Assembly (NCBI GenBank): GCA_949291375.1 | Contig: CASEVI010000003.1 | Location: 14,224 to 78,223, forward strand | Origin: an uncultured bacterium | Lineage (GTDB): Bacteria; Bacillota_I; Bacilli_A; RFN20; CAG-826 | Length of the DNA: 64,000 bases | Direction: 5' to 3' | Shown here: piece by piece, positions 4,432-4,896 of the stretch | Position numbering within the stretch: the first letter of the stretch is position 1 | Layout: every line of letters begins with the position of its first letter | Program-made: the position numbers and the translations under genes | Notes under the pieces: generated by a model | Databases searched by the model: none | What the model was told of the DNA's origin: nothing | What the model saw: the letters and a program-made list of their open reading frames with translations, nothing else

Positions 4432-4608
4432 ATGGCGAATTTTTATGGCTCGTCCTATTGTTGCTCTTTAAAAGATTATTTAATAAGATTTATGTTTTCT
4501 AAAAAGAGGCGAAAACCTCCGAAAATAAAAAATAAGTTTGAAATGGTTATAACTGTCTTGACCATAATCAAACTTATAATAGAAATCATAATTATTTTAA
4601 TCAAATAA
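4432..4608 (+). CDS. small protein (59 aa) with a hydrophobic C-terminal helix (MVITVLTIIKLIIEIIIILIK)
   Basis: ATG at 4432 preceded by AAAGGAG at 8 nt spacing; internal in-frame ATG at 4543 could yield a 21-aa hydrophobic peptide; below the ORF-track length cutoff. Confidence 0.3.
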   Translation: MANFYGSSYCCSLKDYLIRFMFSKKRRKPPKIKNKFEMVITVLTIIKLIIEIIIILIK

Positions 4609-4896
4609 TCTGATAAAGTCAATAATAGGCTCCGAGCCTAGAAATAAATAAAAACTTTAACTATAATAAAAAAGTCGGAGGTATTACCCAACGACTATTT
4701 TTAAAGGCTTGTCCTACTTGATAGGTTATTTATATTTGAAAGTTGGTTTCAACGAAGAGGAAAAAGCCTCATAAATTTAAAAAAGATAACTTGGAAATCT
4801 TTAAAATGTTTTTAGAGATAATCCTTGTTATCCTAGAAATCATCTTAATTATATTTAAATAACTATTGAAATTCAAGTAGGCTCCGAGCCTAGAAA
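4501..4896 (+). repeat. two tandem homologous cassettes: GAGG..CCTC hairpin, A-rich tract, tiny hydrophobic ORF, 15-bp palindrome TAGGCTCCGAGCCTA
   Basis: Hairpins at 4507-4522 and 4758-4771; palindrome copies at 4626-4642 and 4878-4894; about 75% identity over about 75 bp before each palindrome. Confidence 0.55.
4806..4862 (+). CDS. 18-aa hydrophobic peptide MFLEIILVILEIILIIFK (paralog of the C-terminus of the 4432 ORF)
   Basis: Sits in the second copy of a duplicated cassette; nucleotide similarity between 4575-4608 and 4827-4862; no clear SD. Confidence 0.2.
   Translation: MFLEIILVILEIILIIFK

Follow-up and report, generated by a model that had tools for sequence, protein, structure and literature searches.

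Tandem fold-back RNA units with coding-like hydrophobic frames in the leader of a prophage lipoprotein gene: a candidate type I toxin-antitoxin-like module

The 64,000-nucleotide (nt) stretch analyzed in this work (contig CASEVI010000003.1, positions 14,224 to 78,223; hereafter the window) has a GC content of about 28% and carries a prophage, in which two homologous units lie in tandem between a giant phage gene and an accessory lipoprotein gene. They are tandem copies of a plus-strand transcription unit that is complete in itself, each with a predicted promoter and a fold-back RNA that embeds a coding-like frame. The two rod-shaped RNAs form the 5' leader of the lipoprotein gene, because neither rod is followed by a plus-strand terminator. 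As our tentative first choice, held at somewhat less than an even chance, each unit is a type I toxin-antitoxin-like module that is co-transcribed with the lipoprotein gene. This interpretation is ranked first because the combination of a small hydrophobic open reading frame (ORF), an mRNA locked by 5'-3' pairing, a 5' stem-loop, a convergent antisense promoter-like site, tandem copies and a prophage location matches published heuristics and determinants of type I systems.

The gap between the start of the giant gene (4351) and the lipoprotein ATG (4905) is 553 bp long. A sequence-only reading of this DNA had proposed two homologous units in a gap of about 550 bp, and they are indeed present, at 4378-4644 and 4639-4896, with 69% identity (175/254) and four indels. 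All the elements listed in that reading exist in the sequence, with coordinates that were 1-2 nt off. Both units share one order of parts, namely a promoter, a 5'-terminal stem-loop displaying GGAG and the fold-back rod, and it is this complete set rather than the rod alone that has been duplicated.

Unit 1 begins with P1, a plus-strand sigma-70-type promoter-like site (4378-4406; TAGAAA-17-TATAAT, score 10/12) followed by an A7 run (4407-4413). The plus-strand 5' stem-loop (4414-4436; GCCA/UGGC plus GGA/UCU) displays the Shine-Dalgarno sequence AAAGGAG and holds AUG 4432. The ORF starting there, on the plus strand at 4432-4608 with AAAGGAG 8 nt upstream of its ATG, encodes 58 amino acids (aa), MANFYGSSYCCSLKDYLIRFMFSKKRRKPPKIKNKFEMVITVLTIIKLIIEIIIILIK; the ribosome-binding site and the in-frame tiny ORF were described correctly before, whereas the length had been given as 59 aa. 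Internal in-frame ATGs occur at 4492 (38 aa) and 4543 (21 aa), the latter frame (4543-4608) encoding MVITVLTIIKLIIEIIIILIK. Rod 1 is a plus-strand fold-back of 207 nt (4439-4645) with a side hairpin at 4506-4519, previously placed at 4507-4522, and an apical hairpin at 4532-4577. Its 3' foot is the 15-bp palindrome TAGGCTCCGAGCCTA at 4626-4640 (not 4626-4642), the last bases of which overlap the -35 hexamer of the second promoter. A minus-strand promoter-like site (4594-4622; TTGACT-17-TAAAAT), with a start predicted near 4587, is antisense to the unit 1 ORF.

Unit 2 repeats this layout. Its promoter-like site P2 (4639-4667, plus strand; TAGAAA-17-TATAAT) is followed by an A6 run and by a plus-strand 5' stem-loop (4674-4695; GUCG/CGAC) that displays GGAGG; by eye, the stems of the two stem-loops differ by paired changes, GCCA/UGGC in unit 1 versus GUCG/CGAC in unit 2. 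The position homologous to ATG 4432 is ACG (4691-4693). Rod 2 is a plus-strand fold-back of 187 nt (4705-4891, or 4699-4897 with a weak foot) with a side hairpin at 4757-4770 (not 4758-4771) and an apical hairpin at 4785-4832 that carries AUG 4806 at its tip. The conserved plus-strand open frame (4743-4862) encodes 39 aa if read from TTG 4743 and 18 aa if read from ATG 4806; the shorter version (4806-4862) encodes MFLEIILVILEIILIIFK and has a weak GGA 10 nt upstream of its ATG. The minus-strand promoter-like site of this unit (4848-4876; TTGAAT-17-TATAAT) has a predicted start near 4841. The second palindrome copy, TAGGCTCCGAGCCTA at 4878-4892 (not 4878-4894), forms the 3' foot of rod 2, with its last base 1 nt before the ribosome-binding site of the lipoprotein gene (AGAAAGGAAATTTATG), which it had rightly been said to abut.

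Each unit was folded from its likely transcription start. In the predicted structure the hairpin, the spacer, the ORF and the palindrome, which had been presented as separate parts, are all parts of one rod of ~200 nt. The rod is closed by a 5' box (consensus GGCUYGUCCUA) that pairs with the palindrome, the GAGG/CCUC hairpin is a side branch of its 5' arm, and the hydrophobic mini-ORF makes up the apical-to-3' arm. In rod 1 the box GGCTCGTCCTA (4447-4457; GGCUCGUCCUA) pairs with CGAGCC/UAGG of the palindrome region, where UAGAAAU also pairs with AUUUUUA; in rod 2 the box GGCTTGTCCTA (4706-4716; GGCUUGUCCUA) pairs with CGAGCC and UAGG of the palindrome. The plus-strand minimum free energies are -73.4 kcal/mol for unit 1 (z -8.66) and -65.0 kcal/mol for unit 2 (z -6.14) relative to dinucleotide shuffles. 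The minus strands reach -63.9 and -51.7 kcal/mol, respectively, so that the plus strand is more stable by 9.5-13 kcal/mol. When the 64 kb were scanned in 230-nt windows every 25 nt, the two units were the top plus-strand folding outliers after GC correction, and both rods persist in the fold of the whole 548-nt transcript from P1 to the lipoprotein gene. Each unit contains five G.U pairs and no A.C 1x1 mismatches, and a cruder alignment of the arms counts seven wobbles on the plus strand versus two on the minus strand.

The fold is kept despite 31% divergence between the copies. Standard pairs account for 93.6% of pair cells versus 33-48% in slid controls, and 10 pairs are changed on both sides, where slid controls give 1-3 and shuffles 3.4 +/- 1.5, none of the 500 shuffles attaining 10; with an alignment of three rows, two of them nearly identical, these values are supportive and fall short of a formal covariation test. 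A C-to-U change in the 5' box preserves pairing as G.U. Identity around the palindrome spans 19 nt between the copies (TAGGCTCCGAGCCTAGAAA). The palindrome TAGGCTCCGAGCCTA has exactly two copies in the 64 kb versus 0.00 expected from shuffles, and no third copy was found there with up to two mismatches allowed; none of the scans, in this window or beyond, showed the dispersed repeat that had been named as a refuting outcome. The local palindrome hairpin alone reaches -6.6 kcal/mol and has no U-run. In Rfam nothing passed the gathering threshold, and what matched at E values up to 10 was at chance level. A 6S-like RNA was rejected, since its covariance model was unmatched: neither 6S nor a related family was reported by cmscan of 4300-4950 (E up to 10), where the best match was a chance one of 26 bits against a gathering score of 90.

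A separate complementarity links the two units. The heptamer CCUCCGA (4516-4522), on the 3' side of the side hairpin of unit 1, is perfectly complementary to UCGGAGG (4675-4681) in the Shine-Dalgarno-like loop of unit 2. On a P1 read-through transcript this match could act as an inter-unit anti-Shine-Dalgarno pairing; the predicted minimum-energy fold does not use it.

The hydrophobic frame is probably coding, at least until recently, as judged from its composition and from the comparison of the two copies. Of 20 codons sampled per unit, 15 in unit 1 and 16 in unit 2 have T at position 2. The T-periodicity statistic over 60 nt reaches 12.5 in unit 1, the maximum for both strands of the window, and 12.0 in unit 2, and all 19 other regions with values of at least 11 are inside same-strand open frames of 120-1476 codons. 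Of the 54 bases in the aligned 18-codon cores, 20 differ (37%), and both cores are open, with grand averages of hydropathy (GRAVY) of 2.41 and 2.64. Under drift simulated by composition-weighted random substitution, a stop appeared in 57-60% of trials and GRAVY averaged 1.0-1.2 +/- 0.7; the probability of a frame that is open and as hydrophobic was 0.004-0.017. Codon position 2 is the least changed, with 8 differences versus 13 and 16 at the other positions (permutation p 0.05). From the aligned codons ATG 4492 and TTG 4743 to the shared stop, the sole indel is of 3 nt, while those upstream are of 9, 1 and 2 nt. In L001, a relative that is 98% identical to the window, unit 1 has five substitutions, four of them within the ORF and three of these four synonymous. 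A polar stripe with seven-residue spacing is common to both peptides (T7/E4, E14/E11 and K21/K18, by eye). The minus-strand frame, used as a control, is open in both units and loses its hydrophobicity in unit 2; for this reason the minus-strand ORFs were rejected as real genes. Programmed frameshifting that would restore a full-length unit 2 protein was also rejected, as the offset is +1 and no suitable slippery site is present.

Transcription signals are likewise shared between the units. The hexamers of P1 and P2 are identical at 12 of 12 positions compared to 9 of 17 in the spacer (Fisher p 0.006). The minus-strand promoter-like sites score 10/12 each, occupy homologous positions in both units, are convergent with the plus-strand promoters and agree at 10 of 12 hexamer positions versus 9 of 17 spacer positions (p 0.10). 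Four sites scoring at least 10/12 fall within 520 bp, where the window mean is 0.42. On the minus strand the 5' stem-loops read as a weak hairpin with U7 in unit 1 and a hairpin with U6 in unit 2 (-7.1 and -11.5 kcal/mol), and these hairpins with U-runs, at 4436-4407 and 4695-4668, are the candidate ends of antisense RNAs. On the plus strand the sole terminator-like site within 4000-5500 is the terminator of the cassette at 5328-5354, a hairpin of -14.4 kcal/mol whose U-run is good in plus-strand and poor in minus-strand orientation. Because no plus-strand terminator-like site precedes 5328, the rods must be part of the lipoprotein mRNA.

In the preferred interpretation, the plus-strand RNA of each unit would encode a small membrane peptide that is basic at its N-terminus and hydrophobic in its C-terminal helix, on which the conserved polar stripe lies. 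The peptide of unit 1 would be the 58-aa product initiated from the Shine-Dalgarno sequence and AUG 4432, and that of unit 2 the 18-aa product of AUG 4806. The 5'-3' fold-back would keep the peptide mRNA mostly untranslatable. A minus-strand RNA of ~175 nt, starting near 4587 or 4841 and ending near 4407 or 4668, would base-pair with that half of the peptide mRNA in which translation starts, and so block or destroy the mRNA. The lipoprotein mRNA would have the peptide RNAs as its 5' leader, and the module would ride with the prophage cassette and may help to retain it.

Published descriptions of type I systems provide the yardstick for this model. In such systems the antitoxin is an antisense RNA with a promoter and a terminator of its own, and it overlaps the toxin mRNA or pairs with it. 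Heuristics for type I loci include tandem repeats, transmembrane ORFs of 16-70 aa and local folding minima (PMC2887945), and the determinants of toxin mRNAs comprise a 5' stem-loop, sequestration of the Shine-Dalgarno sequence and a 5'-3' long-distance interaction (PMC8594479). For instance, the full-length toxin mRNA of aapA1 is inert through folding (PMC5416894), and yonT encodes a 58-aa prophage toxin on a polycistronic mRNA (PMC5848175). The ORFs considered here are small (<70 aa) and hydrophobic, at 58, 38 and 21 aa in unit 1 and 39 and 18 aa in unit 2. Both units combine a 5' stem-loop with a rod closed from 5' to 3' end. In unit 1 the Shine-Dalgarno sequence and AUG 4432 are partly paired (unpaired probabilities of 0.56 and 0.35), and the internal start sites probed in this unit (4492-4494 and 4545-4547) have an unpaired probability of 0.0.

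Several observations weigh against a toxin-antitoxin function. A 3' terminator is usually listed among the determinants of type I toxin mRNAs, and no plus-strand terminator-like site that would end either peptide RNA occurs within 4400-5327. The layout of the peptides, with a basic N-terminus, a hydrophobic C-terminus and a single C-terminal Lys, reverses that of most known toxins. Start codons are not conserved: unit 2 has GGAGG and ACG where unit 1 has its good Shine-Dalgarno sequence and ATG 4432, followed by a 1-nt indel that breaks the frame; the ATGs of the short ORFs (4543 and 4806) do not align and have no Shine-Dalgarno sequence or a weak GGA; the alternative starts of unit 2 have a weak GGA or none; and pairing is complete at the internal start sites probed in unit 1. 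Of the changes in differing codons, 21 are non-synonymous and 5 synonymous. The candidate terminators on the minus strand are weak, and the promoter-like sites of that strand are only marginally conserved (p 0.10). On the L001 and L003 contigs the gap was left empty by the gene callers. A search of 1.84 billion representative proteins returned no homologue of the small ORFs, none of the families in Pfam, NCBIfam or PHROGs matched them, and tblastn against a phage collection was negative; the exact 58-aa sequence is missing from the protein collection, and the one Pfam match of the 58-aa ORF, to WLS-like_TM, is far below threshold (E 0.019). No similarity to the toxin families Ibs, Fst/Ldr, Hok, TisB and TxpA/BsrG or to the RNAs Sib, Sok and RatA was found in Pfam, NCBIfam, PHROGs or Rfam. 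In addition, the coding frame was picked post hoc, and two paralogues with a single 98%-identical relative give low comparative power. The resemblance to Ibs, Fst and Ldr toxins that had been suggested from the sequence extends to the coding-type periodicity, kept hydrophobicity, 5'-3' fold-back, tandem copies and convergent antisense promoter-like sites, and it does not extend to homology, to a plus-strand terminator or to conserved start codons.

We also considered an unlikely but distinct form of the type I-like model, in which the units represent an undescribed class of hairpin-encoded peptide genes, with one ~200-nt hairpin serving as both the translational lock and the coding sequence of a new type I-like family. 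The two arms would be the two halves of one ORF, and this origin may explain why the N-terminal half is basic and hydrophilic and the C-terminal helix ultra-hydrophobic. The tandem gene and its antisense RNAs would then hitch-hike on the prophage lipoprotein cassette. If correct, such a hairpin gene would offer a concrete route for the de novo birth of membrane peptides from inverted repeats.

The main rival to the type I-like module is a non-coding structured RNA whose hydrophobic frames are untranslated, acting either as the lipoprotein 5' leader or as trans-acting small RNAs; we regard it as a real, if minority, possibility. Such a leader might stabilize the lipoprotein mRNA or be processed from it, e.g. 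at a double-strand-specific RNase site by the ribosome-binding site; the 5' stem-loop with its decoy Shine-Dalgarno sequence might serve as a stabilizer, or small RNAs might be released from the leader. The rod is the strongest and best-supported feature of the locus, and it is the rod that compensatory change keeps in both copies, not an ATG coupled to a Shine-Dalgarno sequence. The retention of GGAGG without a start codon in unit 2, the full pairing of the internal start sites probed in unit 1, the absence of gene calls in the gap and of protein homologues of the ORFs, and the continuity of the rods with the lipoprotein mRNA, with no terminator in between, all fit this account as well. However, it leaves unexplained a codon-type T periodicity that tops the window and the retained hydrophobicity. 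The lipoprotein Shine-Dalgarno sequence and AUG are 0.38-0.66 unpaired, so there is no clear translational switch, a purely cis-acting leader gives no reason for an intact distal unit 1 with its own promoter, and no Rfam family, 6S RNA included, was matched. An ordinary small membrane protein appears considerably less probable: unit 1 would encode a 58-aa tail-anchored partner of the lipoprotein, for example in superinfection exclusion, and unit 2 would be a decaying duplicate, with no toxin-antitoxin logic involved. The strong Shine-Dalgarno sequence and ATG of unit 1, the coding signature, the co-transcription with the lipoprotein gene and the loss of start codon and reading frame in unit 2 agree with this view. 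Yet such a gene has no need for a -73 kcal/mol fold-back between its own 5' and 3' halves, homologues are absent, and a decaying copy would not be expected to keep the rod through 10 compensatory pairs, the promoter hexamers at 12 of 12 positions or the hydrophobic frame.

It is very unlikely that the rods are selfish or structural DNA, i.e. a hairpin-type miniature mobile element or an inverted-repeat recombination module that acts neither as RNA nor through a peptide and resembles MITE/REP-type elements or the promoter-stem-loop cassettes of T4-type phages. Dispersed hairpin repeats have many scattered copies per genome, with terminal inverted repeats and target-site duplication. Each unit forms an imperfect inverted repeat over its full length, related phages lack the inserted cassette, gene conversion could maintain the 19-nt identical block, and repeated promoter-stem-loop modules do mediate gene shuffling in T4-type phages (PMC2839356). 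Nevertheless, only two adjacent copies exist in the 64 kb, and no related copy outside the phage lineage was seen in the fetched loci or in the scans of IMG/VR, the GTDB genomes and the JGI metagenomes. The rods have no flanking target-site duplications or direct repeats, the duplicated unit comprises promoter, stem-loop and rod, and the plus-strand G.U bias together with the coding periodicity points to selection on the transcript. The least probable account follows two suggestions of the sequence-only reading, an operator and leader peptides. The palindrome would bind a dimeric repressor that controls the cassette, or the translation of Ile-rich leader peptides would remodel the RNA and thereby regulate the lipoprotein gene. 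A repressor operator is a dyad located at the promoters it regulates and is usually repeated in the immunity region. In its favor, the palindrome is a 7-1-7 dyad conserved perfectly with its flank (19/19 nt), its first copy overlaps the -35 hexamer of P2, and three segments (GGCUC, GGCUC and GAGCC) permit alternative pairings. As an operator, however, the palindrome has only two copies, none elsewhere in the prophage with up to two mismatches; P1 lacks it, its second copy is at no promoter, and its role as the 3' foot of the rod accounts for its conservation through pairing with the 5' box, including the C-to-U change that keeps a G.U pair. Control by a leader peptide finds no alternative terminator for attenuation, the lipoprotein Shine-Dalgarno sequence is only partly paired (0.38-0.48 unpaired, with its AUG at 0.57-0.66) and so not strongly sequestered, and unit 2, the nearest to the lipoprotein gene, lacks a strong leader start.

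The units belong to an accessory cassette among the late genes of the prophage. Terminase, portal, major capsid and tail-fibre genes occupy the minus strand at ~4.3-26 kb, and an integrase gene lies at 43371-44480. Host-type genes are found past the integrase (a PepO-like endopeptidase, ABC transporters and a CDF transporter), and this points to a Bacillota-like host. The giant gene on the minus strand (start 4351, occupying 2-4351) is open at the left end of the window, where 1450 codons could be read; on L001 and L003, which are the same or near-identical contigs, its product is 2877 aa long with an LPD38 domain and looks like a polyvalent virion or ejected protein. This protein has a zincin-like HExxH motif (KHELTHSLF) ~560 aa from the N-terminus, and in a tblastn search of the phage collection its sole match was a 92-aa stretch of a Microbacterium phage minor capsid protein. 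The lipoprotein gene, on the plus strand at 4905-5330, is the downstream cistron of the cassette and encodes 141 aa with the lipobox LVSC behind a ribosome-binding site AAAGGA at ~4893-4899. An AlphaFold model of the lipoprotein had a pLDDT of 39.6 and was unusable. The units, the lipoprotein gene and the terminator form, on sequence comparison, a lineage-specific accessory cassette inserted in the late operon, because more distant relatives join the giant gene straight to the preceding tail gene, with the cassette absent (L005 11767-20709, L025 ~3655-6215 and L026 ~3178-5744). The direction of the cassette is opposite to that of the late genes.

The region downstream of the units shows its own signs of exchange. 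The 98% identity between the window and L001, which holds on either flank, is interrupted by a block below blastn detection (window 4969-5737, L001 10064-10896) that covers the mature part of the lipoprotein and the C-terminal ~125 aa of a convergent 434-aa protein. The lipoproteins are 46% identical overall at the amino acid level, with identical signal peptide and lipobox. The mature lipoprotein and the C-terminus of the 434-aa protein appear to have been exchanged as one unit, a pattern compatible with a receptor-binding tip paired to an exclusion lipoprotein. In another relative, L004, the homologue of the 434-aa protein starts with ACG behind a GGAGGG Shine-Dalgarno sequence (5750-5775) where the window has ATG, and the gene was called 400 nt later because of this ACG. 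The change parallels that in unit 2 at 4691-4693; the recurrence of ACG could reflect coincidence, assembly error or tolerated non-canonical initiation. L004 also carries a 333-aa reverse transcriptase (RVT_1) gene at 2887-3888, directly upstream of the gene for its tail protein, which is 88% identical, and a DUF6273 gene lies two genes beyond it; a diversity-generating retroelement is one possible reading of this locus. The window has no ORF of at least 120 aa at the equivalent position that could encode a reverse transcriptase. The idea that the two units are the repeat pair of a retron or a diversity-generating retroelement was rejected, as the differences between them involve all four bases as well as indels and the window has no reverse transcriptase gene nearby.

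In the collections searched, the units are carried by no relative more distant than 98% identity, and the comparative evidence is thus that of the paralogue pair. Patterns for the palindrome (19-mer and 15-mer), for the gapped 5' box plus palindrome and for promoter plus 5' box detected no related copy outside the phage lineage in IMG/VR, and the same holds for the gapped 5' box plus palindrome pattern in GTDB genomes and for an 18-mer in JGI metagenomes. The 13 JGI and 15 IMG/VR matches obtained are chance matches in unrelated sequences of 37-61% GC. Searches of phage and plasmid collections by blastn and tblastn returned nothing, as did viral, genome and protein searches anchored on the N-terminus of the giant protein. 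An alignment-based scan yielded two distant phages, both without the cassette, and homologues of the 597-aa tail protein led to relatives without the cassette or to contigs that end before it. The 18-mer, TAGGCTCCGAGCCTAGAA, was matched in 13 JGI contigs (L009-L021; 39-49% GC), 12 of which share a conserved repeated family unrelated to the rods.

Other features of the window are independent of the cassette. The folding scan returned another plus-strand outlier at 27540-27830 (-64.2 kcal/mol, z -4.0), an intergenic region of 20% GC with plus-strand genes on either side, just beyond the end of the structural module that carries the terminase. It consists of a series of separate hairpins, several on the repeated motif AAGTGCTT and at least one terminator-looking, and is unrelated in sequence to the rods. 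A tRNA-Thr(CGT) gene is located on the minus strand at 19592-19666, inside the structural module just downstream of the capsid gene, and the host part of the window has two more tRNA genes, Arg-ACG and Leu-CAG.

If the type I-like model holds, the locus would represent a new toxin-like family from an uncultured low-GC host and its prophage, found without homology. Its design would be unusual in that the whole peptide mRNA is one rod and is also the 5' leader of an accessory lipoprotein gene, and it would link addiction or abortive-infection logic with accessory gene expression, possibly for superinfection exclusion. Should the rods be non-coding, they would be an unclassified, strongly structured phage RNA worth a family of its own. 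The locus was flagged by structure outliers together with codon-type periodicity, and this combination could find modules where protein searches fail.

When compared with described systems, the locus comes close to the tandemly repeated chromosomal loci ibs-sib, ldr-rdl and zorO-orzO of enterobacteria (Fozo et al. 2010, PMC2887945) in having ~250-bp units duplicated in one intergenic region, 18-21-aa ultra-hydrophobic ORFs missed by gene callers, a local folding-energy minimum and a convergent antisense promoter-like site. It differs from them in several respects. There is no sequence or Rfam similarity, the host is low-GC Bacillota-like and not an enterobacterium, the peptide RNA enters the lipoprotein gene without a terminator of its own, the basic region is N-terminal to the helix, and the antisense RNA is a candidate.

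A similar situation is observed for aapA1/IsoA1 of Helicobacter pylori and the fold-back of hok/Sok (PMC5416894; T1TAdb, PMC8594479), with which the units share a 5'-3' interaction that closes the full-length mRNA, a 5' stem-loop, start sites buried in helices and a candidate antisense RNA covering the initiation region. In contrast to these systems, nearly the entire transcript is one rod with the two halves of a single ORF as its arms, the unit 1 Shine-Dalgarno sequence lies in a loop and is partly paired, and no 3' terminator or 3'-processing site is identifiable.

Prophage location and a polycistronic toxin mRNA are shared with yonT/SR6 on SPbeta (PMC5848175) and with the C. difficile phiCD630 systems (PMC7699646), as are, in our reading, housekeeping sigma-70/sigma-A-like promoters; the yonT toxin is also 58 aa long. 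These systems differ in lacking homology to the units and in having experimentally defined antitoxins. Their toxins carry the hydrophobic helix at the N-terminus and are basic at the C-terminus, a layout opposite to the one found here.

PeSL elements, the promoter-stem-loop cassettes of T4-type phages, are short, occur in many dispersed copies per genome and serve as recombination substrates. The units resemble them in that a repeated stem-loop with a promoter flanks small accessory genes in a variable region (PMC2839356, PMC4122927). Unlike PeSLs, they are present in two copies, each of which is a ~200-nt structure with covariation and a coding-type frame.

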